A DNA stretch of 63,991 bases, counting the filler, from Barthelona sp. PAP020 (taxonomy: Eukaryota), in assembly GCA_040182905.1 (NCBI GenBank). It is 11 parts of 11 records of this genome, joined end to end, with 100 filler letters (N's around TTAATTAATTAA, not from the genome) between each part and the next. Parts side by side here need not be neighbours in the genome. Positions count along the whole stretch, not along the records: positions 30,010 to 35,836 come from JARQWU010000577.1; 10 more parts are not named here. The stretch is one strand, 5' to 3'. Position 1 is the stretch's first letter, and every line of letters begins with the position of its first letter. The position numbers and the translations under genes are program-made. The notes under the pieces are model-generated. The model had not been told where the DNA came from and did not search any database. It was given only the letters and a program-made list of their open reading frames with translations. Below are positions 11,364-57,856 of the stretch, piece after piece.

Positions 11364-11942
11364 TTAGTATCTATAGGCACCAATACCCATATTGGGGTTC
11401 ATGTTCATGTTATTATTCACACCCATATTCATGTTAGGATTCATGCCCATGTTCATGTTATTATTCATACCCATATTCATGTTAGGATTCATGTTAGGAT
11501 TCATGCCCATATTCATGTTAGGATTCATACCCATATTCATGTTAGGATTCATACCCATATTCATATTAGGATTCATATTAGAATTTATGCCCATATTCAT
11601 GTTAGGATTCATACCCATTCCCATATTAGGATTCATTCCCATATTACCATTCATCGATTGATTCATTCCGTTCATCATACCAGTCATCATATCCATGGCT
11701 TGATTCATTTGATTGCCCATTTGCATACCCATTTGTTGTCCCATTTGATTACCCATACTCATATTCATGTTAACTTGAGGTTTGGGAGCACTCATTCTCA
11801 TGCCTCCATTCATATTCAAGTGATTACCAGTATTCATTTGTTGACTCATCATAGGTTGAGAATGCATTTGACTTGGTTGGGGAGTATAAGTCATATTAGG
11901 CATGTTTCTATTTTGCATTGTGGTAAAAGGTAAAGATTGAAC
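11364..11942 (-). CDS. C-terminal part of a protein with a Met/Asn/Gly/Gln/Pro low-complexity tail (5' truncated)
   Basis: Frame is open to the contig edge; repeated MNPNMNMG units. Confidence 0.65.
   Translation of the reverse strand, partial: VQSLPFTTMQNRNMPNMTYTPQPSQMHSQPMMSQQMNTGNHLNMNGGMRMSAPKPQVNMNMSMGNQMGQQMGMQMGNQMNQAMDMMTGMMNGMNQSMNGNMGMNPNMGMGMNPNMNMGINSNMNPNMNMGMNPNMNMGMNPNMNMGMNPNMNPNMNMGMNNNMNMGMNPNMNMGVNNNMNMNPNMGIGAYRY
11385..11645 (-). repeat. Coding tandem repeat, ~24-nt unit (ATGAATCCTAACATGAATATGGGT)
   Basis: Recurrent cccatattcatgttaggattcat on the + strand. Confidence 0.85.
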
Positions 11943-12044: not shown

Positions 12045-12194
12045 GGCTTCAAGATTAATACCAAAGAAAGGGTAATTAGCTTACCAAAGGAAAAAAGAAA
12101 TGCAATGCTGGATATGCTAAACGGATTAACAATTCAAGGAGCAATCTTGCTCAAAGGAAAATTTCAATCAGTCAGCATTATAGGAAAGATTTAA
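12045..12194 (+). mobile_element. Fragment of a DIRS-like reverse transcriptase
   Basis: GFKINTKERVISLPKEKRNAMLDML..LTIQGAILLKGKFQSVSII* aligns with GFKINTKDKKIWLPMDKRKKMLDLC..ITIEEALSLQGKLQSASIV in the element at 32176-35836. Confidence 0.85.
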
Positions 12195-13196
12195 AATTAA
12201 ATTTTATCCCCCAAAAAAAAATTAAATGAACAAGCATAAAAAAAGACTTTCGACATTCACAGAATGATGCCCATTAAACACTATTATCATATCATAAAAT
12301 AACCAACAAATATCAAATAATACTAAAATAGTGATAGAAGAGGAGAAAGGAAATTTAAAAAAAAATTCAAACAAATTCATTTTCAATTGTGATTGTACCT
12401 TTTAAAAAATTCAAAATGATGTCCATTTATTCCTTAAAAAAATACTTCTTTGATTCATGAATCACTCTTTTTCCGAATTTCAACTATCAACTCAAATTTG
12501 TGATGATTCAACAAAACAATTCATTTATTTTATATTTTAAAGGTGAAATATTGATTACTAATTGGAAAATATTTTTTTCATAAAAACCAAAATTAAAAAG
12601 AATAAATAATTGTTTTGCAAAAGCTTGAAAAAGATGTTTGGAAAAATATTTGGTCATAATTTTGTGAAAAAGGTATCTTTGTTTTTAAAATTTGAACCAA
12701 TCAACATGCAAAACAACAAAAGCATTCATTTTCAAAAATTATTGGTGAATGAAATAAAAGTTAACTGTTTAATTGAATGTTTTTGGTTGCTTTTAAATGT
12801 GCTTATTTGTTGTTACCAAATCGCACGCATCTCAATTGTACCAAAAATTCTTTAAAAAAAAAAGTTACTCTCATCAATTGTTTTCCAAAAAACATTGGAA
12901 GTCGACCAAAATTATCTTTCTTTTTTCAATATTCATTTTTTGAATTTGGGAAAATTTTCAATATGCAAAAATTAAATGAATTTTTCAAATTTTTTTCTAG
13001 GGTGTAAAATTATTTTTCACGCAAAAACTGAAAAAAAAAAAATTTTGTTAATTTTATATATATCAATTACAAAGTGATCAGTTAATTGGTTGATAGTATT
13101 TTTTTACTTTTTTTTGGGGGGAAAAATTGAAAAAAAAATGTCGACCAGATTATTGCTTTTCACAAATCAACTTCTTTTTTTCTCTCTTTATTCAGT

Positions 13197-16100
13197 ATGA
13201 AAAATTTGGAAAAAAAAGGGTTTTATCTTTTCAATGACAATGCTTACAACCCAAACAAGTTGCTATTTAACTTTTGTGACACTAAGATTTTCATGGCAGT
13301 ACCTTTCTCAACCAAGGGAATAGAGTTTACAGGCTCAAATAGGAAGTTCCATGATGTGAAAGACATTTTTGTTGCTGGATTTGGAACTTCTCAAAATAAC
13401 ATTTCAAATTTTGCAAGCAAATTTGAAGGTGGTTTTTGTTATATTCTTGAAATTACTGATGATGACGTTTTGATTAATTATAAAACAATCCCCAAAGAAA
13501 ATATCAGAGTTTTGACTCCAAACAATATGAATATGATTAACACTTTTGATAAAACAATTAATTCCATGTATCCTAAGCTAATGGAACGTCAAGATCATTT
13601 ATTTCATCAAAAATTAGAAGTTAACTATGATAACCAGCAAATAACAATCGATAGAAAAAGTAATTTCAATGAGAAACTTACAACTATCATTCAAAAGTTA
13701 TCATATGTTTTAGGTATAAGTACAGCGTATTTCTTGTGCAAAAATGTGGATGACTTCACTGTTTACTTCAGGCTGTACCAACTTATCACTGAAGATCTTG
13801 GTATTTATCAATTTAAACCATGTAGTATTCAGGAAAATGATTCATTGACGACAAACATATCTAAAAAAACCGAATTTGAATATTTTAAAAACAATTTATT
13901 AATGAGCTCGATTCCTTTTAAAAATCGACAAATTGGTGGAGTTTTGCAAGAATTATACTTTAGAGGTTGGGCCAATGATGAGCCAGTTGATCTTCAAGCT
14001 TTAAAACAGTTCTTTTCAAAGTCCGTTAAATGTTTTGCTAATCGCAATTCGGATAATTTTTTTGATTTTTTTGAATATTCAAAGAAATTAATAGAGCATA
14101 TTGAAAGGCATGAGGATTTGAATCAAAAGTTAATTTTCTACAATTATGGATTGTTAAAAATTGATGAAGATATTCATTTTGTTCATGCTGATGAACTTGA
14201 AGATCTGAATAAATGGTATGATTTTTCCATTTATCGAATCACCTGCAATGTGTTGGACATTAATTTTTTGGGTTATCATAACGATGAATTACCGAATGGA
14301 TACTTCAAAATAGATGATGAAAAATTGATCACAATCAATTTGAAAGATGAAATTGTTGATCACAATATTTTGAAATATTTTAGCTTTCCTAAACCTGAAG
14401 ATTTAACCAATTTATTTATTTATCGAAAGGAATTATTTGAAGAAGTTGAAGAAAAAGAGCAATTTTTTGAATTGATAAATTATTTTCTTTTGTCTGAACA
14501 ATCTTATTATCAACGAGCAAAATCTTTGGTTTTTAATAGAAATTTACTTGATAAATGTGATATTATTGCTCGAAAATATACAAAATACATACGTAAGCGG
14601 TCCAACTACTTTGAAGGATTACCAATTTACTCTTCAAACAAATCAGTGTTGAAAATGTTTAAGGGAATGAAATTTGATGAACGAGAGATTACAAGTGTTA
14701 TAGATCTTCTTTATGGTTCTGGTGCTCAAGATTTTAGATCGAATTGTGAAAAATTAAATTTGGCTTATGACACTGCATCAATAAAGAAGCTTGAAGCATT
14801 TTTTGAATTATTTACTTTATTCAAATTTATTGAAGCAAAGAATAATATCATTAGATTGATAGATGATCACAAAGGTAATTTGGAGAGAATGGTCTGGACA
14901 TCTTTTTTTACTGATACATTTGAAAAGAATCAAACATTTGAAAGAATAGCAAACAACAAACACAATACTGTAAATGGATATTTTGAAAGAAAGAAAAATG
15001 AAGCTGGACTGTTGGACATTTTAAAAAACAGCAAATTTCCAAAAAAAAAATTCAAGAAAATAAGAGGTCTTTTATTTGATTCTGCTAATAGATACATGAA
15101 AATTATATTGATGAAACAGAAGATCATTGCAAAAAAACGTTTTTTGCAAAAAGAAAGAAAAGATTTCAAGTTAATTGCCATGAAGTTTTATGGTTTAAAC
15201 AAGCTAACAAATGGAATCGTTGAACTGGCATTCACAATTCCAATTGAACAGGAAGTTCAAAGGATTTTAAAGGGTGGTTTGTTTTTACTTGTTTCTTTAA
15301 AGCAATTTTTATCCCAAGGTGATAAATCAAGTGAATTGATTAAGTTTGGACTTTTATCCATAGTATCAGCGGTTTCGTCACAGGTTGTCATTTTTCGAAC
15401 ATGTACTGAATTTTCAAGGCCTGAATTTTTTACTGACCTTGAAACAGACAACATGAGTTATGTTGTTCCAATTAAATGCATGTCACAGGTTGCTTATCGA
15501 AATTTTAGAAATTTTCATGCTCATCTTCAAAGAGATGCTGAACCAAATAAAGGTATCAGGCATTTTAAATGGTGTGGTTTACCACCCAGTAATATATCTT
15601 CAAATGAATATTTGAAAATGAATAATAATTTTTTGACAAATAAAATTTGGAGAAAAGACAAGCCTAATGGGCAAAACACGTATGAACAATTAACAGATAT
15701 GCAAAAATTTGTTTTGATTAAGTTAATACTGACATTTTCGAAGCTGAATTCCTTTTTAAACACAAAGACGTTGAATATCAAGTTTTTGACTTCAATTTTG
15801 TGTCCTGCAGGTTCTGGTAAGTCTAGATTGTTAGGAATGACAATGGGATATCTTTTGAAAGAAAAGACCATCGATTTTTTGTGTCTTGGACCAAATTACA
15901 AGTCAATTGAAGCATCTGTGAAAAATATCTTTGATAATGTTGAATCAACCATCAATTACATACTGTTTTATCATGAAATCAATGAAAACAAAAGGATTGT
16001 TAATTATTCTAAATCAAAAAAGAAAAACCCTACAAAATACAATTCTGATTGTAGTTTTGTGCTGGATTTATGCTTGGGTGTGGAAAAAAATATTCATGAC

Positions 16101-17945
16101 ATGATTAAAAAGCATTTTGCGTCTGATTTAACCATATGTTGGAAACATGCCAATTTACCACCCAAACAATTTCCCTATATGCACATTGTCTCGTCATATC
16201 AAGACAAAGTTGTTGAGACACTTGTCTCAAAGATGAATTACAAGCATATTAATAATCCTTTTAACGATTTTGAAGAAGTTTTCACTTCTAAAAGGAATAT
16301 ATCAAACAATGTGATCCGTAAAATTTTACAAAAATATAAAGATTACAGTATTATAAAAGATTTTGAGGATTTAATTAAGATTTTGCTGGTTTTAGGCATG
16401 AAAACTGAATTTCGTCAAATATTGAAGCAAATAACTGTGCTTGTGGATAGCATTATTAATATTTCCAATATTTCTCATCTTTCAAACCGTAAAAAAATGG
16501 GCATCATCATGGCGCATGAGTTTATTGTGGATAAACTTAATGATTTTTCATTTCCAAGAATCATGGATACAAAAAGAAACAATGCCAAGATTTTTTGTTC
16601 AACAATTGATAGTTTTACAGGAGATATTACTAGGTCCATTATCTTAATGGATGAATCTTCCAAATCAGCATTTTGCAATGACTTAGCTTTGTTGTGTTGC
16701 TTTAACAGACCGTGTGTTTGTGTTTTTACAGGAGATACAACTCAATTGAAACCAAATATGGGAATTTCAGTGAGTAGAGCTTTGTTTACTGAATGTCTCG
16801 TTAAACATTTTGAAATTTCTGGTTTGGAATTGTTGAGTAAAATGTTGCTTCCTGCGCAACAATTTGCCTTTATTGATAATTTTCGATCTCATGAAATCAT
16901 AACAAGTTTTAATAGTGCCTTATTTTACGGAAATTTATTGAAACCAGGCACGCCCTTGAACTTGTTACCAAAAAGAATTGATAATGATTATCCTCTACAG
17001 TTTTTTAATATTAGTAGCTCGTGTGGGACAAGCATAAAACCAAAGAAGGGATATTCCTCATATCGTTTGGTTGAGTGTTATTTTGCCGTTAAAGTAGCGT
17101 ATGATTCTATTGTTAAGAATCGTTCTTGGAGATGGGAATTGGAAAGATTGCCAGAAAATGCTTTCACAAGTCATATTGGAATTATTGTTCCGTATAGAGA
17201 ACAAGCAAATCAAATTCAAGAAATTTTATTAAATGTTGCTTCTAGAAATCCAAATGGATTTGACCCAGAAATAACTCGTTACATGGATAAGATAAAAGTT
17301 GAAACTGTTGATAGCTTTCAAGGGGCAGAAGCTTCAATGATCATCTATTCGTTTACCAGGAGTTCGGGTAGATTTTCAAAGAATCAACTATCAGTTGGAT
17401 TCTTAAATAATTTTCACCGAATGTGTGTTGCTTTCACCAGAGCAAAATCTAAATTTGTTTTTGTTGGGGATTTTGACACTTTTCAAAGAGTTCCTACATT
17501 TGAGTTATTTTTCAACGGAATAGAATGTACAAATGGAAGCATCACTGGAAAGTCAGTATTCAAGGTTATGAAAAGCCATGGGAAGATGTTCAATGTTAAG
17601 CCTCATGATCATGAAAAATTCTTATTTAATTCTCAGTCTAAAATAGATGTGGATGAAAACTACGAAGAGAATGGGTGTTTGCAAGGTATTTCAGAAGTTG
17701 TGAAAGTTATGAAAAATTGTATCAATGAGCAAACAATGAATTTAAAGAAATGGACAGATGAACCAATGGAGAACCGGAAGTTAAAAGAAAAAATACCCAA
17801 CAGCAATGATTTAAAGAAATCACCATCTTCAAACAAGTCAAAAGATTGTTTTGTTTCTGTCAAAGAGAAAGAAGAATCTCAGAAGAAAAAAAAAAAAAAA
17901 GGAAAAAAAAAAAAAAAAAAAAAAAAACTGAAAAAAATTGATCAA
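13197..17945 (+). CDS. Superfamily 1 helicase, Upf1/DNA2/NAM7-like, with large unrecognised N-terminal region (3' truncated)
   Basis: CPAGSGKS (motif I), MDESSK (II), GDTTQLKP (III), NFRSH (IV), TVDSFQGAEA (V), RMCVAFTRAK (VI). Confidence 0.88.
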
Positions 17946-18047
17946 NNNNNNNNNNNNNNNNNNNNNNNNNNNNNNNNNNNNNNNNNNNNTTAATTAATTA
18001 ANNNNNNNNNNNNNNNNNNNNNNNNNNNNNNNNNNNNNNNNNNNNTC

Positions 18048-19808
18048 TATTTTGCAGCGCTTGAAGGTAATCTTGAAGTTGTCAAGCAATGTATTAAAGC
18101 TGGCGTTGATGTGAACAAACAAGGTAAGGAAGGAAGGACATCGCTTTGGGGAGCTTGTTTTGGTGGTCATATTGCAGTTGTTGAGTTTTTGTTGGATTTT
18201 GGTGCTAATGTTAATTTGAATATGAATGGGGGATATTCTTCGTTATATGTTAGTTGTCAAAATGGTCATCTTGATATTGCTAAAATTCTCTTAGATCATG
18301 GGGCTGATATTAATTTGTGTAGGGACGGTGGATATTCTTCATTGTACGTCAGTTGTCAAAAAGGCCATCTTGATGTTGCCAGAATGCTCTTAGCTCATGG
18401 GGCTGATATTAATTTGTGTATGAATGAAGGTGCTTCTCCATTGTACATAAGTTGTGAACTTGGTCATCTTGATGTTGCCAAAATGCTCTTGGATCATGGG
18501 GCTGATGTTAATTTGTGTGATAATGAAAGTTTTTCGCCATTGTACATCAGTTGTCAAAATGGTCATCTTGATATCGTCAAAATGCTATTGGATCATGGAA
18601 CTGATATTAATTTGTGTATGAATGAAGGTGCTTCTCCATTGTACATAAGTTGTCAACTTGGTCATCTTGATGTTGCCAAAATGCTCTTGGATCATGGAGC
18701 AGATGTTGATTTGTGTAAGGATGGTGCTTCTCCATTGTACATTAGTTGTGAAAAAGGTCATCTTGATGTTGCCAAAATGCTATTGGATCATGGAGCAGAT
18801 GTCAATTTGTGTCCTAATGATGGTGCTTCTCCATTGTACATCAGTTGTCAAAAAGGGCATCTTGATGTCGTCAAAATGCTATTGGATCATGGAGCTGATA
18901 TTAATTTGTGTCCTAATGATGGTGCTTCTTCATTGTACATCAGTTGTCAAAAAGGTCATCTTCATGTCGTCAAAATGCTCTTGGATCATGAAGCTGATGT
19001 TAATTTATGTAATAATTATGATGCTTCTCCATTGTACATAAGTTGTCAACTTGGTCATCTTGATGTTGCCAAAATGCTCTTGGATCATGGAACCGATGTT
19101 AATTTGTGTATGAATGAAGGTGCTTCTCCATTGTACATAAGTTGTGAACTTGGTCATCTTGATGTAGCTAAAATGCTCTTGGATCATGGAGCTGATGTTA
19201 ATTTGTGTAAGAATAATGGTGTTTCTCCATTGTACATCAGTTGTCAAAAAGGCCATCTTGAAGTTGCCAGAATGCTTTTGGATCATGAAGCTGATGTTAA
19301 TTTGTGTAGGGACGGTGGATTTTCTCCATTATATGTCAGTTGTTACAATGGTCATCTTAATGTTGCCAAGATGCTTCTAGATTGTCCCGAAATAAACCTA
19401 TATGGTGAAGATATGCTGTTATTTTTCAATATATTGTATACTTATGATGACCAATGGAAAAAAAACAAATACAGCATTTTGAGCTGTCCCAATTTAAAAC
19501 AACAATTGGAGAGTGGCGAGCCTGTTGATTTGAAATTTGAGCATTTGTCCAAATCCGAGTTGATTGAATTGGTGAAGGATAAGGGTTATCTTCTATCAAC
19601 ACTTGTTGAAATGAAGGTTGACAGTGTCATCATTCGAGAATTTGTCAGTGCTGGAGTTTACATGAATCAAAGAGATTTTGACATGTCAATCAACTTATGT
19701 TGGGATTTGATCGACATCAATGAAAGGAATGGTGGTAATATGCGTCAGTATATTGATGAAGAGATGGAAGATGATGACAGTGATGAGAGTGATGTCAATG
19801 ATGATTAG
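18048..19808 (+). CDS. Ankyrin-repeat protein (at least 14 repeats, 5' truncated) with a conserved, unrecognised C-terminal domain
   Basis: Frame is open from the contig edge (YFAALEGNLEVVKQCIKAG); repeats of SPLYISCxxGHLDVAKMLLDHGADVN; tail shared with the 4404-5609 protein. Confidence 0.92.
   Translation, partial: YFAALEGNLEVVKQCIKAGVDVNKQGKEGRTSLWGACFGGHIAVVEFLLDFGANVNLNMNGGYSSLYVSCQNGHLDIAKILLDHGADINLCRDGGYSSLYVSCQKGHLDVARMLLAHGADINLCMNEGASPLYISCELGHLDVAKMLLDHGADVNLCDNESFSPLYISCQNGHLDIVKMLLDHGTDINLCMNEGASPLYISCQLGHLDVAKMLLDHGADVDLCKDGASPLYISCEKGHLDVAKMLLDHGADVNLCPNDGASPLYISCQKGHLDVVKMLLDHGADINLCPNDGASSLYISCQKGHLHVVKMLLDHEADVNLCNNYDASPLYISCQLGHLDVAKMLLDHGTDVNLCMNEGASPLYISCELGHLDVAKMLLDHGADVNLCKNNGVSPLYISCQKGHLEVARMLLDHEADVNLCRDGGFSPLYVSCYNGHLNVAKMLLDCPEINLYGEDMLLFFNILYTYDDQWKKNKYSILSCPNLKQQLESGEPVDLKFEHLSKSELIELVKDKGYLLSTLVEMKVDSVIIREFVSAGVYMNQRDFDMSINLCWDLIDINERNGGNMRQYIDEEMEDDDSDESDVNDD
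18210..19380 (+). repeat. Array of highly similar ~99-bp ankyrin-coding units
   Basis: Recurrent ggtcatcttgatgttgccaaaatgctcttggatcatgg. Confidence 0.9.
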
Positions 19809-20016: not shown

Positions 20017-20138
20017 ATCGTTCAAATTACACTACAGTCCCTTAATTCCTCCACCCCTGAGGTTTTGACTGAAATTTGCCAGGAGGAGTTTTCTGAGTTT
20101 ACTTTCTCTGTGAATAAATATAGTTGTTTCACAACTAG
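20017..20138 (+). repeat. Dispersed intergenic repeat, short copy A
   Basis: atcgttcaaattac...gagttttctgagtttactttct...aataaatatagttgtttcac, also present at ~31597-31709 and ~41629-41750. Confidence 0.85.
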
Positions 20139-20346
20139 AAAAAAAATTCCACAAGTCTTATTTTCGGACTCTATACAACAAGCTTTCATTCTTAGATTAT
20201 TTTCTTCTTTTTCTTTTTAAGAAGGCTTCTCATTTATGCTCAAAACAAAATAAGCGGGCCCACTGAAGCCTCCAAACTCATAGAAACAAAGTCAATAAAT
20301 TAAAAAATACAATGAAATTTATCAAACAAAACGATTAAAACATCAA

Positions 20347-30999: not shown

Positions 31000-31398
31000 A
31001 GAAATTTTGTCACTCACTTTGATTTTTATTTGTAAGAAGTAAATTATTGAAAATATTTTTTTAAATTTTGGTTGTCAAAAAACCCACTTTTCTTCATTGA
31101 GTTTCGGTATTTTGTTAAAATGGACAATGATTTCTTTCTTAAGAGTTTGGAATTTTTGTTTCATAAAGGGGTTGTCTATTTTATACATTTAAATATTTTT
31201 ATAATAGTCAAATAATGGAATTGTGCAAAAAAAGAATTATCAGATAAAATATGAGGTATGAATTGTTCAGTGAATAGCGAAACGAGTTAGCTTAAGGTTT
31301 GGGAAAAACTGACGTGGATTCAAATGCCCAACTAACTTAAAAAATTGGACCCAAAGGTGGTCAAGAAACAACAAATAAAGGAAGTGATATTTGATGAG

Positions 31399-31826
31399 TT
31401 ATTTCCAAGCCAAGAAGCACTGTGCGTATGAGTGAATAAAAAAGAATAGCGTTTATTTGGTTAAAGGCTTTCGAGGCCCGATTGATCTGTTGAAAAATTT
31501 TAGATTTTCTAAGGTAATGTTCAAACTTCAAAATTTTGCTTTTGCAAAAATTCAAAAAAATAGGAATGAAGAATTTTGGAGAAATTCTCCTACTTGATCG
31601 TTCAAATTACATTCCAGTCCCTCAATTCCCCTCCTAGGATTTTGACCGAAATTTGCTAGAATGAGTTTTCTGAGTTTACTTTCTTTGTAAATAAATATAG
31701 TTGTTTCACTTCTAATAAATTCTTTTCATAAAGCATGAACTTCCACAATATATCATAAATATTATTTTCAAGCTAAGAAGCACTGTGCCCATGAGCGAAT
31801 AAAAAAAAAAATTGTGTTTATTTGGT
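31399..31826 (+). repeat. Dispersed repeat, copy B (31399-31709), plus a restarted partial unit (31762-31826)
   Basis: ~310-bp similarity to 41433-41750; the head ttattt.caagc.aagaagcactgtgc recurs 363 bp later. Confidence 0.85.
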
Positions 31827-31949
31827 ATTATTGTAAATATTAATAATATTTAATTTTTACAAATTTCTCCTTTTTATGAATTTAAATAATATTCAAAATT
31901 AATATTAAAATCACAAAATTAATATGTTTTGTCCCAAATCACTTTCAGT

Positions 31950-32021
31950 TCTTTCGTAGTGTAGTGGTCATCATTCAAGCCTGTCACGCTTGGGACCGGG
32001 GTTCGATTCCCCGCGAGAGAG
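31950..32021 (+). tRNA. tRNA-Asp (GTC)
   Basis: Acceptor TCTTTCG/CGAGAGA, anticodon stem CAAGC/GCTTG with loop CTGTCAC, T-arm CGGGG-TTCGATT-CCCCG, discriminator G, TTTT terminator at 32024-32027. Confidence 0.95.
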
Positions 32022-32029
32022 AGTTTTGA

Positions 32030-35000
32030 ATTGAAGTCTTGCAAGAACAGGATCGAGTCTCACATTTCATAATCATTCACTGGACAAAAGAAACAACACA
32101 AAACAAAATTTCACGTTAGACGAAAGGGCAAAATTAAAGGCTTTAATTTATATTTGCTAACTGGGGTTGGGGAAATTACTCCATGGTATCTTTGCTGTTT
32201 TGGTCAACCGATTCAGAATTCTTTGAGTCCATATCGTTCTGAATCGGTCTCACAGTAAATGACTTTGCCGCATAAAGTCTTACCATTTCGTCTGTTTTCC
32301 AACCACCAATAGCCTTTAAGTATTCGAGATCGCCACCTTGTCTTCCGAATCGACTTGTTTCGTCGGTAGCTACCTGAAATAATTCTCTTGCTCTCCCTCT
32401 TCTGAATGAGTGTAAGGTCAATGGGTAATCGAAGTTGTGATGTTTCGAAAACCTTCTCATAACCGTTGCAAGCTTGTCATTAATTTTTCTAATCTCTTCG
32501 TAGTTGTTTGTTAGTGCTAAAATCTTTTGATTTTCCAGGCGTTTGAGATATTTTCCAAATGTTGCGCTGATCTTACCGTTGTGTAGTGTCCGTAACAGTT
32601 CGTCTTTGAAAATCACTACTTCTTTCACAGATTTGACCTTTTGACAGTATATGAAAATGACCACTGTTTTCTTTCCTAATCTGTAAGAAATGTTTCCTCC
32701 CTCCAGATCTGACCTCCTGGAACATGTGAAGTATAAAGTAACGGCTGTCTCAATCATGTGTCTTTTAGTATCTTCGTCCTCATTGACTTCTTCTTGGATA
32801 TATTTTGATAGCATGAGAAGCTGTCTTTTTGTCATGGCTGTTCGAGGTATGTGCTCTTCAGCTTTTGGTGGTCTTAATCTTTTGTTTCGTTTCACAACCA
32901 TCCCATGCAAGCTTTCATAACCAGGACTTGGTGACCATCCCGCAGCTTTCCAAAAGAATGTCACACCTGTGTACATTCTAGCCAGTGTTTCTGTCTTCAT
33001 TCTGTATTTTCCATCTTCAGTCCTTTTGTCTCCTTCTTCCGTAATGAATTTGTGTAGTAATAATTCAGTAAATTGATCGATTCTGTCATGTTTGTCGTCT
33101 TTACCATTTTTTCTGCAGTAAGAAAGGAATCTTGTAAAGTATGCTTCGTATTGTCTCCATGTTGATTCAGCAACACTTTCTTTCATATTCTTAAATACGA
33201 ACGGATCCATCCAAGTACATAAATCTTCTTTCTCATCTTCTACCTCATCAGCTATAAATTCTCCATTGGTCGTACTTCCTTTGACTTCGATTCCTCTTCC
33301 ATTGTCAAACTTCTCCACCAAAGGATACCAAGCCGGATATGTATGTTTACTAACTCCTCTGACTGAAATGTTCTTTCCAAATCTTACAGCTCGCAACATC
33401 AAATCAAGTACCATATTTTCTTCTGTTTCCTTGTAGTAAAGCTTATCTCCAATCTTTGTTGTAGCTGTGTAAAACAGAATGGAATCGTATCCTATAGTCG
33501 CAAAATCGTTATCATTGGCTAGTGGATCTTTTCCGATTTCTGGCAATGTTTCTTCAGTAGGATCTTCTTTTACCTCTGCTACTTCCTTCCATAAATCTTC
33601 AGTTATCATTTGAGGAAATTCTCCAGTTCTGATTCTTTCCCTGTCTACCAATCTTCGAATAGTCTTTGATTTTCCTTGTAAACTTCTTCCGGTTCGATTC
33701 TTAAATGTCTTACATTTTCTCAAAGACGTAAATGAGGGATAAGCGTAATCTGGGATAACAAACTCATCTGGACATAAAGTAATGTCTGAGAAAACTCCTC
33801 TATTGGGAAGAGTTATCGTCTGGTTCCTCGATAGCAAATCTGCAAACGTGTTTCTTTCTGTAGGAATCCATATCGGGTATATGTGACAGTTTAGTTTCTC
33901 ACACATTGCCCAAACATCTCTAGCAATTTCTTGCAGTTCAGCTGAACCACTCTTTTGTTTCCTAAAAGCAGCCAAAGCGTTCTGATTGTCCACAAGCCAA
34001 GCCCAACACGCGTCTTTGGCGTTAGTTTTCATATGTGTTAAGGCTTCTTTGAGAGCTATCATTTCTAAAGCTGCAATATTGTTGGGTAACCCTTTGTTTT
34101 TTGTACTTTTCTGCAAGCTTTTAACAACCTGACTAGTTTCTAAAACTGCACCTAACCCTTTTAGTGATGCATCTGTTGCTATCACTCCAGTAACCACACG
34201 TGGTGATAAATTTCCATCAATTCTCACCTCTAATAGATGGCGAATCTTATCTGTAAGATGTTTTGTTTGTCCTAGTTTCACTTTACCAAAAAACTTAGCT
34301 AGTTCTTTCATATCACTACATCCTAAATAATGCTTTTTGTGATGTATTGCGTTTCCTAGTTCTAAGCTCATACTTCGGTATCTTTGTGAAACTATTGAAG
34401 CTGATTGAAGTTTTCCTTGTAGTGATAATGCTTCTTCGATCGTAATTTCTTCAGTACATAAGTCCAGCATCTTTTTTCTCTTATCCATTGGCAACCAAAT
34501 CTTCTTATCTTTTGTATTGATTTTAAATCCTAAATATTCTACTTCTGTGGTAGGATTTTGAATTTTTGAGGTTTTTACTTTAAAACCAACGTATTTTAGT
34601 ATGAGCAAAACTTTTTCCAAATTCTCTTTGCATTCCTCCAATGATTCTCCTCCAATTAGAAGATCATCAACATACTGTAGAACAAAAATTCCTGATGCTC
34701 TTGCAAATTCAACTGGGACCTGAAGTGCCAACGAGAACAATTGCGCTGAAATTGATGAACCAAAAGGCAACTTAACAGCTCCATATTCCTTTCCTTTTAC
34801 GTTAACAACCGTATTTTCTAGCCATTCAGGGCTTAATGGAATATGGGTGTACCCGCTCTCAATATCAATAACTGCTGCGTATTTTGGAATGAGAGGGAAG
34901 TATCTACCTACATTGATTTCATGAGGCCAAATTTCTGAGACTGCATTAAGAGGAGTTGTATCTAGGATGGGTCTAACAGTTCCGTCTTTCTTTAGCACAG

Positions 35001-35836
35001 CACCCAGTCCCGCTTCTCTTTTTTTCTCCCCCTTAAAAGGTTTTAAAACACCTTCTTTTATCCATTGCTGGAGAACTTCTTCTGTTTTTTCCCCAGCCCA
35101 ATTTTTAACCCCTTTTATTATGCCCGTTTCGTCCAACAAGGTTGGTGCACCATTAACCACCTTTTCCAACGACTCTATTTCTTTTTCGTCGTACTTCAGG
35201 TGCAGAGCCAAGTTCTTAAAGCCTTCAGGATTCCATTCTCCTTTTGCTTTGGCAATTTCATTCCAGATTGTATCTGGGCTTTTGACATCATCAACCATTT
35301 GAATCTTTTCTTTTGTTTTTTCCAATAATGGTTGAGTTACTTGGTTCTCTTTCTCCTTTTCTTTCTTCTTCTTTTGAGCTTTCCAATCTCTGGTGAAAGC
35401 TTTCCTCAATCTTTTTATTTCGTTCTTTTCCCGGCAAAGACGAGTGTTTTCTTTCAATAATTTTTGAATTGTCCTCTCTCCAGAGGGCCGGGAAAAATAA
35501 ACGGAATCTTTTTTTTGATTGAGTGCTGGATATGGCACCGTAACTCCATGATCCTTTCTCAAATCACGAGCGAATGTTTTTAATTCGTCGTTCCACATTT
35601 CGAGTGTTTCAAACTCCTTTGTTGTTTCTAAGAGAATTGGGATGATTTCATTCATATTAATTCCTTCAATATTGGCAGCTTTTAAAAAATCTCCAATAAA
35701 AAGCATGATCGGAATATAAACATTAGCCTTTTTGAAAAGAAATTTCCCCTCATCGAAATTTCGGTCGGGTTTTCTAAATTGAACCCAACCAAAAATTTCC
35801 TTCATCCATTTTTGATGTCGAACCAACTTCTTGAGT
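32030..35836 (-). mobile_element. Tyrosine-recombinase (DIRS-order) retrotransposon, 5' truncated; 3' boundary approximate
   Basis: Encodes RT, RNase H and tyrosine recombinase; visibly less AT-rich than its flanks. Confidence 0.9.
32176..35835 (-). CDS. Polyprotein: RT + RNase H + possible degenerate methyltransferase + SAM-like domain + tyrosine recombinase
   Basis: DIESGYTHI, LPFG, YVDD (34663-34674), YLG; TDAS, LEMIAL, VDN, ADLLSR; STWRQY; catalytic R (CSRRSDL), HSFRRG, GGWK...RLY; frame is open to the contig edge. Confidence 0.92.
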   Translation of the reverse strand, partial: LKKLVRHQKWMKEIFGWVQFRKPDRNFDEGKFLFKKANVYIPIMLFIGDFLKAANIEGINMNEIIPILLETTKEFETLEMWNDELKTFARDLRKDHGVTVPYPALNQKKDSVYFSRPSGERTIQKLLKENTRLCREKNEIKRLRKAFTRDWKAQKKKKEKEKENQVTQPLLEKTKEKIQMVDDVKSPDTIWNEIAKAKGEWNPEGFKNLALHLKYDEKEIESLEKVVNGAPTLLDETGIIKGVKNWAGEKTEEVLQQWIKEGVLKPFKGEKKREAGLGAVLKKDGTVRPILDTTPLNAVSEIWPHEINVGRYFPLIPKYAAVIDIESGYTHIPLSPEWLENTVVNVKGKEYGAVKLPFGSSISAQLFSLALQVPVEFARASGIFVLQYVDDLLIGGESLEECKENLEKVLLILKYVGFKVKTSKIQNPTTEVEYLGFKINTKDKKIWLPMDKRKKMLDLCTEEITIEEALSLQGKLQSASIVSQRYRSMSLELGNAIHHKKHYLGCSDMKELAKFFGKVKLGQTKHLTDKIRHLLEVRIDGNLSPRVVTGVIATDASLKGLGAVLETSQVVKSLQKSTKNKGLPNNIAALEMIALKEALTHMKTNAKDACWAWLVDNQNALAAFRKQKSGSAELQEIARDVWAMCEKLNCHIYPIWIPTERNTFADLLSRNQTITLPNRGVFSDITLCPDEFVIPDYAYPSFTSLRKCKTFKNRTGRSLQGKSKTIRRLVDRERIRTGEFPQMITEDLWKEVAEVKEDPTEETLPEIGKDPLANDNDFATIGYDSILFYTATTKIGDKLYYKETEENMVLDLMLRAVRFGKNISVRGVSKHTYPAWYPLVEKFDNGRGIEVKGSTTNGEFIADEVEDEKEDLCTWMDPFVFKNMKESVAESTWRQYEAYFTRFLSYCRKNGKDDKHDRIDQFTELLLHKFITEEGDKRTEDGKYRMKTETLARMYTGVTFFWKAAGWSPSPGYESLHGMVVKRNKRLRPPKAEEHIPRTAMTKRQLLMLSKYIQEEVNEDEDTKRHMIETAVTLYFTCSRRSDLEGGNISYRLGKKTVVIFIYCQKVKSVKEVVIFKDELLRTLHNGKISATFGKYLKRLENQKILALTNNYEEIRKINDKLATVMRRFSKHHNFDYPLTLHSFRRGRARELFQVATDETSRFGRQGGDLEYLKAIGGWKTDEMVRLYAAKSFTVRPIQNDMDSKNSESVDQNSKDTME

Positions 35837-36405
35837 NNNNNNNNNNNNNNNNNNNNNNNNNNNNNNNNNNNNNNNNNNNNTTAATTAATTAANNNNNNNN
35901 NNNNNNNNNNNNNNNNNNNNNNNNNNNNNNNNNNNNATTGTCAAAGCAAAAAATGTTCAGGAATTGGAAGATTTTGAATCTCAAATTGCAACAATGATTC
36001 AAAAGTTGGAGGAATTAAAGATCTTTGTTTAACTCAGCTGATATGTTTTTTTAAAGAAAAGATTGTGCTTTCACTTTACAAATCATAAAAAATTTGTGTT
36101 ATGTTTCTTTTTTTTTTTTGCAATTCAAGAAAATTTAAAAGTTAAAAGAATAAATTTCTTCCAATATATTTAGAACCCTATATTGTCAAATACAATCTTT
36201 TCACAAATTTAGAAATATTTCTAAAAACATTGTTTATTTATCATAACCAAATAAAAGAAGCATCCAAGTGTTTTGAGGGAAATATTAAACTAAATATAGT
36301 GTTTTGTAAAAAAAAGGGGTCTTCAACTTTTTTTTTTTGTTTCATTTAGATTGTAATATTCTTACTTTATACAGTGTAAGATTGAAAGAAACATATTGAA
36401 CAAAA

Positions 36406-41432: not shown

Positions 41433-41750
41433 TTATTTCTAAGTCAAAAGCACTATGCGTATAAATGAATAAAGAAGAATGGTGTTTATTGGGTTAAGGG
41501 CTTTCGAGGTCTGATTGATCTGTTGAAATACTTTGGGTTTTTTGAAGTAAAATTTAAACTTTGAAATTTTGCTTTTTCTGAATACAAAAGAATGGGAATG
41601 AAGAATTCCTCCGAAATTCTCACACTTGATCGTTCCAATTACATCTCAGTCCCTCAATTCCCCTCCTGGGATTTTGACTGAAATTTGCTAGAATGAGTTT
41701 TCTGAGTTTACTTTCTTTGTAAATAAATATAGTTGTTTCACAACTGGACC
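41433..41750 (+). repeat. Dispersed repeat, copy C (runs to contig end)
   Basis: Aligns with 31399-31709 and 20017-20138. Confidence 0.85.
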
Positions 41751-52718: not shown

Positions 52719-53552
52719 TTAAAAAGGAATAATAACACCATCAATGTCTTTAACAGCATCAATAGCAATTTGAATATCTTCGTTAAAAGTATATTCATCA
52801 ATTTCCTCTTCACTAAGACCGTTGTAAGAATAATCAGCCCCGATAGTACCGCGATTATCAGCAATAAATTCATCAGTAACAATACCACTTAATTTAACAA
52901 GAGCATAATTCAAACTTTCAACGAGTGAATCTGTACATCTTTGATTAGCAAGATCAGCAAGGTATTTGATCTTTTTTAACACAAGATCAACTTCAGTAAT
53001 CTGATAAAATTTAAGACGTCTGGAATACCAGTCAGATTCAAGAATAGATTCACGAGAGAACAATTCACGATATTCACTATCATGCAATTGATAACCACCA
53101 AACGATTCATCATCAGATACCATCATGTGAACAAGAATGCGAAGAGGAGGAACAAGTAAATCAACAGTACCATCACGAATATAGGCTTGAGCAACCTTTA
53201 AATGGGCTTCACAAATGTTTTCGATTCCATCAACATAACTGGGAAGGCCTTGTTCTTCAGGACGTAAAAGAACATCATTGAAGACAATGTTAGGTGTGTC
53301 AAAGAGACGACCAAGGAATTCTTTAAGGAAACGAGAGTTAATTCTCCAACCAAGACGAGAACCTTTGACATTGCGACCTTTGTAAGGAAAATCGTCAACA
53401 CGTTCCATAAATCCATTATCAATAAGATATTTGGCAGAACGTTCATATGGCAAAAGACGAGACCAAATTTCAGGAACCAATAATGAAATGTCGTGAGACA
53501 CTTCATAATTATCACCGATGTATCCAGCAGCAGATGAAAAAGCATCATAACC
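52719..53552 (-). CDS. Pyrophosphate-dependent PEP carboxykinase (PPi-PEPCK), C-terminal part (5' truncated)
   Basis: GYDAFSSAAGYIGDNYEVSHDISLLVPEIWSR, SRLGWRI, FLGRLFDTP, LRPEEQ, YVDGIENI, PPLRIL, SDWY are characteristic of PPi-type PEPCK; strongly biased codon usage. Confidence 0.8.
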   Translation of the reverse strand, partial: GYDAFSSAAGYIGDNYEVSHDISLLVPEIWSRLLPYERSAKYLIDNGFMERVDDFPYKGRNVKGSRLGWRINSRFLKEFLGRLFDTPNIVFNDVLLRPEEQGLPSYVDGIENICEAHLKVAQAYIRDGTVDLLVPPLRILVHMMVSDDESFGGYQLHDSEYRELFSRESILESDWYSRRLKFYQITEVDLVLKKIKYLADLANQRCTDSLVESLNYALVKLSGIVTDEFIADNRGTIGADYSYNGLSEEEIDEYTFNEDIQIAIDAVKDIDGVIIPF

Positions 53553-53653
53553 NNNNNNNNNNNNNNNNNNNNNNNNNNNNNNNNNNNNNNNNNNNNTTAA
53601 TTAATTAANNNNNNNNNNNNNNNNNNNNNNNNNNNNNNNNNNNNNNNNNNNNT

Positions 53654-53962: not shown

Positions 53963-54232
53963 AAGTGAATTGTTTTTTCTTCCATTTATTTTGTAAAAAA
54001 AAAAACTTTTAAATGGCTAAATTGGGTTTAAAGTGATATGTGAGTCTTTAAAGGGAATCTTGAAACACCTGAAACGGAAAATGAATAATTTTTAAAAAAA
54101 ACAATAAAAACATAATATAACAGCATTTTAGACACAATTTTTATCAGCAAGTGAAAATTTATGTTTTTGTAAAAACAACACAGTTTGAATGAACTTTTGA
54201 TTTTTTTCTTTTCTTTGAAATCTTCATTTATC

Positions 54233-57200
54233 ATGTCAAATACTCTTGAAAAATTTTCACAAACGTTGTTAGAAGTTGGTAATAATAATTTTTGTAATTT
54301 TATTGATACAATCAAATCTGTTGATTTTCTTTCTGTGTTTAGTTGCCTTTGTCAAACTGATATTCCTATTTTTGAGATTACTATGTCGATGGTATCTAAT
54401 TTTGTTGATCATCAAGAAGCTAATGAAGAAGCGATTATTCTTTTTTTTAGAGTTGTGTGGTTATCGACTGCATTTGAAGAATTATTGGAGACACGAGCCG
54501 AATTGGCAAATGATAGAACATTTCAAAAGTGTTTGAATCAATTCTATGAGAATTGTACTGTTGCCTCCAATATTATTAAAAAGACAACTGAACGTAGCTT
54601 TTTAGGCAAGTTTGTATTTGGAGGGAAGGATTTAGAAAATATTACAAAGTTACATGGAAAATTCGACAGTATTAATGGGGATCTACAACTAATACTGAGT
54701 TCAAAAATAGCAACTTTTCCAGAAACAATTCAACAACATATCACGACCCATCTAAATGACATGAATCAAAAGTTAATGGAAGAATTGCAAAAAAATTATA
54801 ATAAGATGGAGGATAACCACAAGGAGCTTACTAACACGCTTTCCTTAATCTTGACCAAATTTGATTCGATGGAACGTAAGAATAAATTGCAAACTTTGCT
54901 GGGAAAAATTGAAAATAACGTAAATCTTAATGATTTACGAAATTTTAACATTCCAGTTATTGATTCTAAAGAAATTTCTTATTCTAGAGAGCTTGGAAGA
55001 GGAGGTTATGCCACCATTCTGAAGGGTAGATATAAGCGATGTGATGTTGCTGTTAAAGTACCTTATAATGCATCTAAAGAGCAAGTATTGAATGAGTGCA
55101 TTTCTATATCATTTATTCATCGATTTATTTGCAAAATTTATGGAATTACCCAGAAAGACGGACAATGGAGCATAGTTATGGAATACTGTCCAAGTACACT
55201 TGAAAGAAAAATGAAAACAATGACTGTCATTGAGAAGCTTGAAAGTCTTATTCAACTGGCAGATGCATTAAGTTGTTGTCATGATAAAGGGATCATTCAT
55301 CGAGATGTCACTCCTAAAAATGTATTAATCAGAGAAGATGGAACTGTTGCATTGTGTGATTTTGGCCTTGTACGCAGTCTAGAAAGAAACAGTGCATTAT
55401 CAACGTTTGGGACTGTCCATTATATGCCACCTGAATTGTTCACTGAAGAAAACCCTGTTGCACATCCTGGAATTGATTCATGGTCGTTTGGTGTTACTTT
55501 TTTTGAAGTGATGAGTGGTTGTACTCCTTTTGAAGGAATTGCTCATCACTTAGTCAATATGAAGCTTGCTTCTGGCAAAAAACCTTTTGAAAATATTGAT
55601 TGGATTGTGGGTTATGAATTTATTTTCAAGTGCTTCAACTCCGAAGCCAATAATAGACCAATGTTTCATGAAATCATAAAATATTTGGAAAGCACATTGA
55701 ATGATATGGAGAATGTTGTTGATGTGTATACAAACAAGTTGATACTACCTAAGACTCCCAATGTTGTTGTCGATATTACCACTTCTAATTATCAAAGTAT
55801 GATCACAAAGTATGCTATTGATGTGGCTGATGATCTTTCTAGTGATTTTGTGATTGATTCCAGTGATTTTTTTGATATTGCTGTGGGGAAAATCCAGGAG
55901 GGCGATATGACATTTACTAAGCAATGCATCAAAGCTGGGTTGAAGTTGAATACACAGGATAATCAAGGAGTTAGCCTTTTGTATGTCGCTGCTAAAAATG
56001 GATATGTTGATATTGTTAGGATGCTTATCGATTTCGGGGTCAATATCAATGTATGCACAAATGAAGGACATTCCCCTTTGTTTATATCATGTAAAAATCA
56101 ACATATTGAAACCGTGAAAGTTCTTCTGAATTTTGGAGCAATTGTTGATTGCAGTCTTAATTTTGATTGTTCTCCAATATACACTGCTTGTAATCAAAAC
56201 CAATACGATATGGCTTGTCTTTTGCTGGATTACATTCAAAATATCAATCAAATATATCAACCTAATGACCTTTCCTTGTTGTATATTTGTTGTGAAAAGG
56301 GGTATTATGATATTGCTAAGCTTTTGTTGGAACGTGGTGCCAATGTAAATCAAACTATTGCACAAGGCTGTACTTGCTTGTATGCTAGTTGTTATTTCAA
56401 CCATAATCGCATTGTTGAGTTGCTTTTAGATAATGGGGCCAACGCTGACAGCTCCAAAAAAAACTTCTTGCCTTTATTTGCTGCTTGTAGTTTTGGAAAT
56501 TTTGAAATTGTCAAATTGCTTTTAAAATATGAGGCCAACGTGAATCAAATGAGAAATGATGGATATTTTGCATTATACTGTAGTTGTGATAATGGTCATT
56601 TAGAGATTGTCAAATTGCTATTGGATCACAATGCTAATATGAATCAAATAACCAATGAAGGTTTTTCTTCGTTATTTATTAGTTGTCTAAAAGGACACTT
56701 AGAAATAACTAGATTATTAGTGGAGCGTAAAGCCAATATCAATCAACTTACAAATGATGGTCGTTCTCCATTGTACTGTAGTTGCGAGAAAGCACACTTA
56801 GAGATTGTCAAATTGTTGTTGGAACATAATGCCAATGCCAATCAACTTACAAATGATGGTCGTTCTCCATTGTACTGTAGTTGCGAGAAAGGACACTTAG
56901 AGATTGTCAAATTGTTGTTGGAACATAATGCCAATGTCAATCAACTTACTGATGCTAATTTTTCTCCATTGTACTGTAGTTGCGAGAAAGGACACTTAGA
57001 AATTGTCAAATTGTTGTTGGAACATAATGCTGATGCAAATTACATCACTTTTGAAGAATGTTCTTGTTTATATGTTTGTTCTTATTACAATTTCGAGAAC
57101 CTCGTCAAATTACTTTTACATCATGGAGCTGATGTTAATTTGACTGGAAATAATTTTTCTCCTCTGATTGCTAGTTGCTCTCAGGGGCACTTTGAAATTG

Positions 57201-57856
57201 TGAAATTGCTTTTGGAAAATGGGGCTCATGTCAATGAACTAAATGAAGATGGGAATTTTCCCTTATTTACCAGTTGTATGAATGGACATTACGAAATTGT
57301 CAAGTTACTCTTGGACTATGAGGTTGATTTGAATCAGTTATCAAAGGAAGGTTCTTTTGCATTAAAAATAAGTTATGAAAAAGGTCATCATGATATTTTC
57401 AAATTACTCTTGGAACATGATGTTGATGTGAATCAAAAATCTAAAGATGGTTTTTTCTTGTTATACGACTGTTGCTGTGCTCAACGAGATGATGATGTCA
57501 AATTGCTTTTGGAACATGGAGCAGATCCAAATCAAACAGTAAATGGTGGATTTACTTCCCTGTATGCTGCATCTAACGATGGAAGTTATAATATTGCCAA
57601 AATGCTTTTGGAATATGGTGCTGATGTCAACCATCTGGGAAATGATGGTTATTCATCTCTCCATATAGCCTGTTGTGAAGGTCATTATGACATTGTAAGA
57701 TTGCTGTTACAGAATGGAGCTGATGTGGATATTTTGAGTTGCAAAGATCAAAAAGCTATTGACATGGCAAAATCAAGGAATTTCACGAACATTGTTGACT
57801 TGTTATCAGAGCCATTGTCTGCGCAAGAGAATAATATTTGTTGTTCTATTCAATAA
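54233..57856 (+). CDS. MLKL-like N-terminal four-helix bundle + TKL-type kinase + ~19 ankyrin repeats + C-terminal CaaX
   Basis: NTD ~54365-54697 (..IIKKTTERSFLGKFVFGGKDLENITKLHGKFDSINGDLQLIL); kinase GRGGYA, VAVK, HRD, DFG, DSWSFG; ANK ~55900-57800; ends CCSIQ*. Kinase and ANK are certain; the MLKL-NTD call is by eye. Confidence 0.88.
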   Translation: MSNTLEKFSQTLLEVGNNNFCNFIDTIKSVDFLSVFSCLCQTDIPIFEITMSMVSNFVDHQEANEEAIILFFRVVWLSTAFEELLETRAELANDRTFQKCLNQFYENCTVASNIIKKTTERSFLGKFVFGGKDLENITKLHGKFDSINGDLQLILSSKIATFPETIQQHITTHLNDMNQKLMEELQKNYNKMEDNHKELTNTLSLILTKFDSMERKNKLQTLLGKIENNVNLNDLRNFNIPVIDSKEISYSRELGRGGYATILKGRYKRCDVAVKVPYNASKEQVLNECISISFIHRFICKIYGITQKDGQWSIVMEYCPSTLERKMKTMTVIEKLESLIQLADALSCCHDKGIIHRDVTPKNVLIREDGTVALCDFGLVRSLERNSALSTFGTVHYMPPELFTEENPVAHPGIDSWSFGVTFFEVMSGCTPFEGIAHHLVNMKLASGKKPFENIDWIVGYEFIFKCFNSEANNRPMFHEIIKYLESTLNDMENVVDVYTNKLILPKTPNVVVDITTSNYQSMITKYAIDVADDLSSDFVIDSSDFFDIAVGKIQEGDMTFTKQCIKAGLKLNTQDNQGVSLLYVAAKNGYVDIVRMLIDFGVNINVCTNEGHSPLFISCKNQHIETVKVLLNFGAIVDCSLNFDCSPIYTACNQNQYDMACLLLDYIQNINQIYQPNDLSLLYICCEKGYYDIAKLLLERGANVNQTIAQGCTCLYASCYFNHNRIVELLLDNGANADSSKKNFLPLFAACSFGNFEIVKLLLKYEANVNQMRNDGYFALYCSCDNGHLEIVKLLLDHNANMNQITNEGFSSLFISCLKGHLEITRLLVERKANINQLTNDGRSPLYCSCEKAHLEIVKLLLEHNANANQLTNDGRSPLYCSCEKGHLEIVKLLLEHNANVNQLTDANFSPLYCSCEKGHLEIVKLLLEHNADANYITFEECSCLYVCSYYNFENLVKLLLHHGADVNLTGNNFSPLIASCSQGHFEIVKLLLENGAHVNELNEDGNFPLFTSCMNGHYEIVKLLLDYEVDLNQLSKEGSFALKISYEKGHHDIFKLLLEHDVDVNQKSKDGFFLLYDCCCAQRDDDVKLLLEHGADPNQTVNGGFTSLYAASNDGSYNIAKMLLEYGADVNHLGNDGYSSLHIACCEGHYDIVRLLLQNGADVDILSCKDQKAIDMAKSRNFTNIVDLLSEPLSAQENNICCSIQ
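56741..57030 (+). repeat. Three near-identical 99-bp ankyrin units
   Basis: Units start at 56741, 56840 and 56939 (aatcaacttac...tctccattgtactgtagttgcgagaaag.acacttaga). Confidence 0.9.

Follow-up and report, generated by a model that had tools for sequence, protein, structure and literature searches.

A divergent DIRS-order tyrosine-recombinase retroelement that ends within 154 bp of a tRNA-Asp gene in Barthelona sp. PAP020

RESULTS

The tRNA-Asp locus

The stretch of Barthelona sp. PAP020 DNA analyzed here ("the window," 63,991 nucleotides) consists of 11 contigs of 4.5 to 5.9 kb each, joined via N44-TTAATTAATTAA-N44 linkers. The retroelement and the tRNA-Asp gene that concern us share the contig at 30010-35836. 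Coding sequence makes up ~72% of the non-linker DNA, as estimated with a rough open reading frame (ORF) mask over the whole window. Host genes in the window include those for kinases, WD40, TIP49, and ankyrin proteins and a B9 basal-body protein, a gene content that shows the source to be a eukaryote with flagella and the standard genetic code. The main features of the locus are as follows.

31399..31712, plus strand: one copy of a dispersed, unrelated repeat of ~310 bp, lying upstream of the tRNA (86% to 41433-41741, 85% to 20017-20132)
31762..31826, plus strand: partial second copy, the start of the ~310-bp dispersed repeat (85% to 31399-31461)
31950..32021, plus strand: tRNA-Asp(GTC), intron-less, with a 7-bp acceptor stem and a G discriminator (Rfam RF00005, ARAGORN)
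32022..32175, no strand: 154-bp interval from tRNA to stop codon, which must contain the element's 3' untranslated region (UTR) and right junction
32024..32027, plus strand: T4 run, likely Pol III terminator (sequence)
32176..35835, minus strand: one open frame with N-terminal region, reverse transcriptase (RT), RNase H, linker domain, and tyrosine recombinase (YR); first ATG at 35805
35837..35936, no strand: artificial contig linker, at which the element's 5' end is lost

An earlier note on this DNA had described a tyrosine-recombinase retroelement lying tail to tail with a tRNA-Asp gene, the sole tRNA of the window, with 154 bp between the tRNA end at 32021 and the element's stop codon, and our results bear out this arrangement. 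The gene was recovered both by Rfam RF00005 (58.8 bits, E = 3.9e-10) and by ARAGORN (bounds 31949-32022), and no second tRNA was found in the window by ARAGORN or by Rfam even at E ≤ 5. Directly 3' of the tRNA come AG and then the T4 run, its likely Pol III terminator. The stop codon, a TAA, occupies 32178-32176 on the minus strand, leaving 32022-32175 as the gap.

The element and its protein

The open frame comprises 1,219 codons and is open up to the contig end; its first ATG lies 31 bp downstream of that end, and from this ATG the ORF encodes 1,209 amino acids (aa). Because complete relatives measure 1,208 and 1,209 aa, the ORF itself may be whole. The claim that this is the only intact element in the window may thus hold for the ORF; the element's 5' end lies off the contig, as would any upstream, gag-like ORF1. 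A second family member in the window, at 12045-12188, is decayed. Four domains follow one another in the frame, listed here from the N-terminal side.

34519..34884, minus strand: RT core with D324 and YVDD 388-391 (Pfam RVT_1, E = 2e-18)
33826..34185, minus strand: RNase H domain with D555, E591, D616, and D666 (Pfam RT_RNaseH, E = 0.013, below cut-off)
33208..33825, minus strand: linker domain of ~200 aa, family-conserved (family alignment)
32260..33207, minus strand: YR with R1040, H1142-x-x-R1145, W1179, and Y1188 (Foldseek, Pfam, residues)

The identification as a YR retroelement is carried by RT, RNase H, and YR standing together in this ORF, all catalytic residues included. In a profile search, the best PDB match was 4ol8, an RT/RNase H (E = 2.9e-12), and the RNase H motif residues are conserved in the alignment. 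A Foldseek search with the structural model, which has a mean pLDDT of 57 and higher values in the YR part, returned Cre (E = 1.7e-6) as well as XerH, XerA, and lambda Int. The catalytic R, HxxR, W, and Y are conserved in three of three proteins, and Pfam Phage_integrase also matched three of three (E = 0.014 for the window protein, 2e-15 for the best). The element protein gave no match to the rve (DDE integrase) domain, and its N-terminal ~200 aa had no family match in the Pfam scan. A Dam-like methyltransferase was not detectable in the linker (hhalign probability of 0.3%), though a strongly decayed remnant of one may persist there. The low-confidence model of the linker (pLDDT of 50) had no Foldseek match to PDB at E ≤ 0.001.

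Relatives and placement of the element

Among 1.84 billion representative proteins, only P0002, P0003, and P0009 were found at E ≤ 1e-30, and all three are labelled as Barthelona sp. PAP020 transcripts. Over its entire length, the window ORF shares 37 to 39% identity with the ORFs of two Barthelona transcripts, and the window element together with P0002, P0003, and P0009 represents at least four diverged subfamilies. The next matches cover the RT-RNase H (RT-RH) portion only, with E values of 7e-28 or weaker, and are mostly of DIRS type. Pfam Dam matched 12 of 36 of these proteins that were scanned; in 3 of the 36, RT and YR are fused in one protein, so fusion alone does not make the family unique. 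A profile of the Dam-like region matched 119 of the 160 RT-RH relatives collected, while it had no match in the window protein and reached iE values of only 11 and 3.2 in P0002 and P0009.

An RT-RH tree was built from 84 of the 160 sequences, without labelled references, the others having failed the motif cut or been cluster duplicates. In this tree, the family's four sequences form one clade with a support of 1.0, on a stem of 1.45 with a parent node of 0.76 and no resolved sister. The element falls into a family of the DIRS order that is both narrow and divergent, and it displays features of this order in its LTR/DIRS-type RT and RNase H with catalytic residues and in a YR that replaces the DDE integrase. 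At E ≤ 0.001, a YR-only profile had no match among 2,717 candidates and yielded no stand-alone or close prokaryotic relative. Related-locus scans of viral contigs, metagenomes, and GTDB genomes gave no confirmed relative, and exact tRNA-pattern scans of the viral, metagenome, and GTDB collections gave zero matches. The literature searched, mostly freely accessible main texts, holds no description of this YR family; the main text of one Barthelona paper that mentions transposable elements does not contain "retrotranspos," "tRNA," or "reverse transcriptase."

One further trace of these elements lies at the start of another contig of the window.

12045..12188, plus strand: decayed RT fragment of a sister subfamily (tblastn E = 2.6e-8)

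Of 49 aa in the relic, 41 are shared with P0009, which points to a Barthelona-like metamonad as the probable host, and no tRNA was found in the 5.7 kb that follow it (ARAGORN, Rfam at E ≤ 5). Since it is truncated within the RT and belongs to a sister subfamily, it constitutes little test of targeting.

When an ORF of this size was allowed to mutate in simulation, it stayed open in 41 of 400 runs at 1% substitution, in 7 of 400 at 2%, and in 0 of 400 at 4%, and the copy is therefore either young or under selection. Selection would be expected if there had been no recent insertion at all and the ORF were a domesticated single-copy gene; alternatively, the adjacency might be a misjoin in an assembly that is indeed fragmented. 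The contig crosses the junction and 3.7 kb of the element unbroken, as would be expected at low copy number. However, the four or more diverged subfamilies and the decayed relic in the window are what one expects of mobile families, and every RT, RNase H, and YR catalytic residue has been kept. We regard domestication or misassembly as very unlikely.

The interval and the element's 3' end

Three sequence features in or near the 154-bp interval were considered as possible signals.

32037..32046, no strand: 10-bp palindrome TCTTGCAAGA, at chance level (shuffles and window count)
32131..32149, no strand: inverted repeat with 9-bp arms and a 1-bp spacer, weak candidate cis element (shuffles)
32207..32248, no strand: inverted repeat within the unconserved ORF tail, with arms of 12 bp and a spacer of 18 bp (shuffles)

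The palindrome, to which the earlier note had drawn attention, is present but lends targeting no support. The window holds 88 perfect 10-mer palindromes (0.21 expected per 154 bp), and we rejected TCTTGCAAGA as a targeting signal because 156 of 1,000 dinucleotide shuffles of the interval contain such a palindrome. We also put down to chance a match of 13 nt that links 32048 and 43788, for which a rough hand estimate gives ~0.4 expected. In RNA folding, the interval does not stand out (z = 0.04). Its GC content is 34%, compared with 38% for the ORF and 15% for the 150 bp lying upstream of the tRNA; 18% of 1,172 non-coding 154-bp windows are as GC-rich, and GC content thus cannot place the element junction.

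Prokaryotic tyrosine integrases that integrate at tRNA genes provide a YR-driven precedent, in DNA elements without an RT. A phage-like att integration of the present element would require a circular cDNA whose core equals the tRNA 3' end or terminator, so that the tRNA is rebuilt and a duplicate of the core comes to lie at the element's 5' end. The predicted Cre/Xer/lambda-Int-like fold of the YR is compatible with such a route, as is the moderately GC-rich sequence that starts directly after the T4 run, in contrast to the 15%-GC upstream flank, although the frequency of equally GC-rich non-coding windows makes this contrast nondiscriminating. The contig at 30010-35836 carries no duplicate of the tRNA 3' end, and no tRNA piece longer than 10 nt was found to recur in it, but the far end of the element lies off this contig. 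The sole tRNA match inside the element is a B-box-like 10-mer at 33691-33700, which we rejected because it has an E value of 2.5 and sits within conserved codons; the motif occurs 14 times in the window versus 8.2 expected. The failure of the YR-only profile to find a close prokaryotic relative also argues against a phage-like origin of the reaction. Starships, on the other hand, target 5S rDNA by sequence (PMC11162782), and the lack of canonical DIRS or Ngaro 3' repeats, documented below, would leave room for a simpler, att-like end. On these grounds, att-like integration appears improbable.

Canonical terminal repeats were sought by comparing 31930-32500 with the contig. Direct exact matches reach 11 nt at most, with no Ngaro-type split repeats, and the inverted matches are the 19-nt hairpin and the 12-bp arms, both local, with no DIRS-type ICR. 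No complement of at least 26 bp between ICR and right terminus occurs in the visible 3' end; according to PMC3266345, the right ICR of DIRS1-like elements complements the right terminus, rICRs being 58 to 88 bp long among the table rows. The visible 3' end is therefore either minimal and non-canonical or clipped. Arms of 9 bp with a spacer of ≤8 were reached in 13 of 1,000 shuffles of the 154-bp interval. The hairpin at 32207-32248 is the window's only inverted repeat with arms of ≥11 and a spacer of ≤30, and arms of 12 bp were reached in 0 of 500 shuffles of 32022-32320, a region drawn after the hairpin had been seen. This hairpin is the best candidate for a terminal cis element.

The gap and its other repeats

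At 1,176 bp, the gap at 31000-32175 is the largest among the non-coding runs listed in the window, partly because the tRNA and the element's own UTR lie inside it. It also carries 1.2 copies of the unrelated dispersed repeat. That repeat terminates in a hairpin plus CTRR, an end that recalls Helitrons. Such an end tells against a model in which the tRNA would be cargo within the element, with 31762-31826, 31462-31761, and 31399-31461 representing a Ngaro-type B1-A2-B2 arrangement and the copies at 41433 and 20017 being solo repeats. The geometry does match A1-[ORF]-B1-A2-B2 (PMC8547959), and solo-like copies of the repeat are present in the window. Yet the two B-like copies are just 85% identical, whereas the ORF would close beyond ~2 to 4% neutral change and the split repeats published in PMC6681497 are 96 to 100% identical. 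We find the cargo model barely credible.

DISCUSSION

The best explanation of the locus is, in our judgment, an untargeted insertion by a likely young DIRS-order element that has been retained in a repeat-tolerant gap, a reading to which we give slightly more credence than doubt. A single copy is visible, and on that basis a landing by chance is somewhat likelier than tRNA targeting. Other repeat copies share the 1.2-kb intergenic gap, the sister-family relic is followed by 5.7 kb without a tRNA, the palindrome is at chance level, and the contig holds no second occurrence of any tRNA piece above 10 nt. Against this stand the small chance probability of the adjacency (0.9 to 1.8%) and a distance that falls inside the insertion windows of TRE3 and Skipper-2.

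How such an insertion might have come about can be sketched from DIRS-1. The element RNA would be reverse-transcribed to single-stranded cDNA, which would then be circularized and receive its second strand (PMC7192593, PMC3266345). The YR would recombine the circle junction with a few matching chromosomal bases, leaving no target duplication, as is suggested by DIRS biology; in DIRS1-like elements, integration takes place where 3 bp match (PMC3266345). End restoration or recombinase binding may involve the hairpin at 32207-32248. The DIRS replication model requires repeats that are absent from the visible 3' end, and this mechanism is therefore borrowed by analogy. In a ~72%-coding genome, insertions would survive mainly in larger gaps, and the 3' flank of a tRNA would be a harmless place; we propose that the insertion behind the tRNA was retained because the gap tolerates insertions.

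The alternative suggested by the adjacency is that metamonad-specific, single-ORF YR retrotransposons integrate at tRNA 3' flanks, either through tethering to Pol III or through recombination, phage-style, at a core of tRNA origin. For a locus chosen post hoc, in a scan in which many neighbors of this kind are picked out, the probability that a random element end comes to lie no more than 154 bp from the window's single tRNA is 0.9% on one side or 1.8% on either side (17,464 non-coding bases). Since this calculation uses the tRNA density of the window, which is probably an overestimate, the true chance may be lower. A rough Bayesian reckoning on our own assumptions, with a prior of 2% (no precedent having been found) and an adjacency by chance of 2 to 4%, or lower if tRNA genes are rarer, leaves targeting a possibility that we are inclined to doubt, within a range that runs from unlikely to evenly balanced. 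That YR elements of eukaryotes are able to target Pol III genes is seen in Starships, 23% of whose 222 sites lie in 5S rDNA (PMC11162782).

In its position-specific form, targeting would involve a complex tethered to TFIIIC or Pol III that inserts just downstream of tRNA genes, with the linker or the N-terminal domain serving as the tether. YR integration requires a sequence match at the crossover, a need more readily served by a sequence target than by a distance window. No known tether domain was detected in the element protein, though a family-specific domain of unassigned function is present. The adjacency, with a post hoc p of about 0.01 to 0.02, speaks for a tether, but it comes from a single locus picked after the fact, and the relic at 12045-12188 has no tRNA downstream. 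The junction here lies 0 to 154 bp from the tRNA end, a distance consistent with the downstream insertion windows of TRE3 (40 to 150 bp) and Skipper-2 (8 to 136 bp across species) (PMC5006619, PMC5911963), whereas the element is oriented opposite to the tRNA and TRE3 is co-oriented with it. The genome is compact, and in dictyostelids such targeting arose at least six times (PMC5006619); in Cafeteria, ORF1 appears to steer Ngaro site choice (PMC8547959). In sum, we consider tethered insertion unlikely, if less so than the att-like route.

The two outcomes would carry different significance. If targeting were true, this would be the first tRNA-targeting YR retrotransposon found in the literature searched, mainly freely accessible main texts, in which we found no report of one; a passage of Table 1 in PMC5911963 lists Ty3-gypsy and L1 elements. 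It would be convergent with Dictyostelium TRE3 and Skipper-2 and with prokaryotic tRNA-att integrases, and it would add YR as a third enzymatic class of retrotransposon, after integrase and endonuclease, that uses the tRNA safe harbor. It would also define a target for the YR of a eukaryotic retroelement, an enzyme whose specificity has been called experimentally uninvestigated (PMC7192593), and would provide a compact single-protein RT-recombinase. If the adjacency is due to chance, we are left with a DIRS-order family that is divergent and comes from a group of protists on which little work has been done; its fused ORF is unusual and its 3' end non-canonical.

Within the DIRS order, the element resembles several known systems and can be filed in none of them, because distinguishing features of the DIRS1-like, Ngaro/PAT, and VIPER groups each failed to appear. 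It shares with DIRS1-like elements (DIRS-1 of Dictyostelium; PMC3266345, PMC7192593) the order of RT-RNase H and then YR, and its nearest RT-RH matches outside the family are mostly DIRS1-like. It differs in having one ORF and a long RT-RH branch, with no Dam-like methyltransferase detectable after the RNase H and no right ICR in the visible 3' end. Ngaro elements (Cafeteria burkhardae types 1 to 4; PMC8547959) likewise have RT-RH followed by YR without a methyltransferase, and some types show a site preference, but they have separate ORFs and, as do PAT elements, carry split direct repeats (PMC8547959), whereas here a single fused ORF is followed by no B1-A2-B2 repeats. VIPER/TATE elements of kinetoplastids also lack the methyltransferase, two Bodo saltans TATE copies are single-ORF, and TATE is site-specific, in telomere repeats (PMC6681497). 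Their YR ORF precedes RT/RH, however, while the YR here is C-terminal and no split repeats were seen.

Outside the order, the likeness to TRE3 and Skipper-2 of dictyostelids lies in an element end ~150 bp or less downstream of a tRNA in a compact genome (PMC5006619, PMC5911963). TRE3 is an L1-type LINE and Skipper-2 a Ty3/gypsy chromovirus; neither is a YR element, and their targeting has been shown on many copies. Starships in 5S rDNA (PMC11162782) offer the parallel of YR-driven insertion at a Pol III gene, but they are DNA elements without an RT, and their sites are inside the 5S gene. For cryptophyte polinton-like viruses, PMC12220804 reports no tRNA genes near the insertion sites, and some CryptonV families target microsatellites (PMC8869645; see also PMC13565253).

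Conserved domain of the element and related fusion proteins

The family alignment delineates one further conserved domain in the retrotransposon, lying between its RNase H and tyrosine recombinase (YR):

33208-33825 (-), conserved domain of ~200 aa

Its invariant motifs are CP, PxY, RxC, and NRT, and it had neither a family nor a fold match in a comparison with the Dam-like methyltransferase profile and a PDB fold search (E<=0.001). Reverse transcriptase (RT) and YR are likewise found in a single protein in three distant matches (P0011, P0056, and P0093), the last of which additionally carries a Dam-like domain.

Decayed relative and dispersed repeat

Comparison with P0009, a Barthelona transcript related to the element, identified a remnant of the P0009 subfamily:

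12045-12188, decayed RT fragment

The initial 34 aa are identical to P0009, 8 of the following 15 differ, and a stop and AT-rich DNA come after these 49 compared residues.

Comparing the window with itself also revealed a dispersed repeat of ~310 bp, with copies about 86% identical:

31399-31712, copy
31762-31826, copy
41433-41747, copy
20017-20139, copy

The three longer copies have the termini CTAA, CTGG, and CTAG, preceded in two of them by a short terminal hairpin, ends that we take to be reminiscent of non-autonomous Helitrons.

Other repeats and effects of window construction

Three repeat-bearing features lie elsewhere:

54173-57856 (+), fusion of a protein kinase with numerous ankyrin repeats
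17994-19808 (+), second ankyrin-repeat protein, in a linker-touching ORF
11383-11645, tandem repeat (84-bp period, units 77-87% identical), within overlapping ORFs on both strands

The repeat DNA of the second ankyrin-repeat ORF has a 99-bp period and is about 64% identical to that of the kinase fusion. The 11 contigs were artificially joined from longest to shortest by linkers with stops in all frames, and linker-touching ORFs (e.g., 13131-17993, 17994-19808, and 52719-53600) are cut or artificially lengthened.
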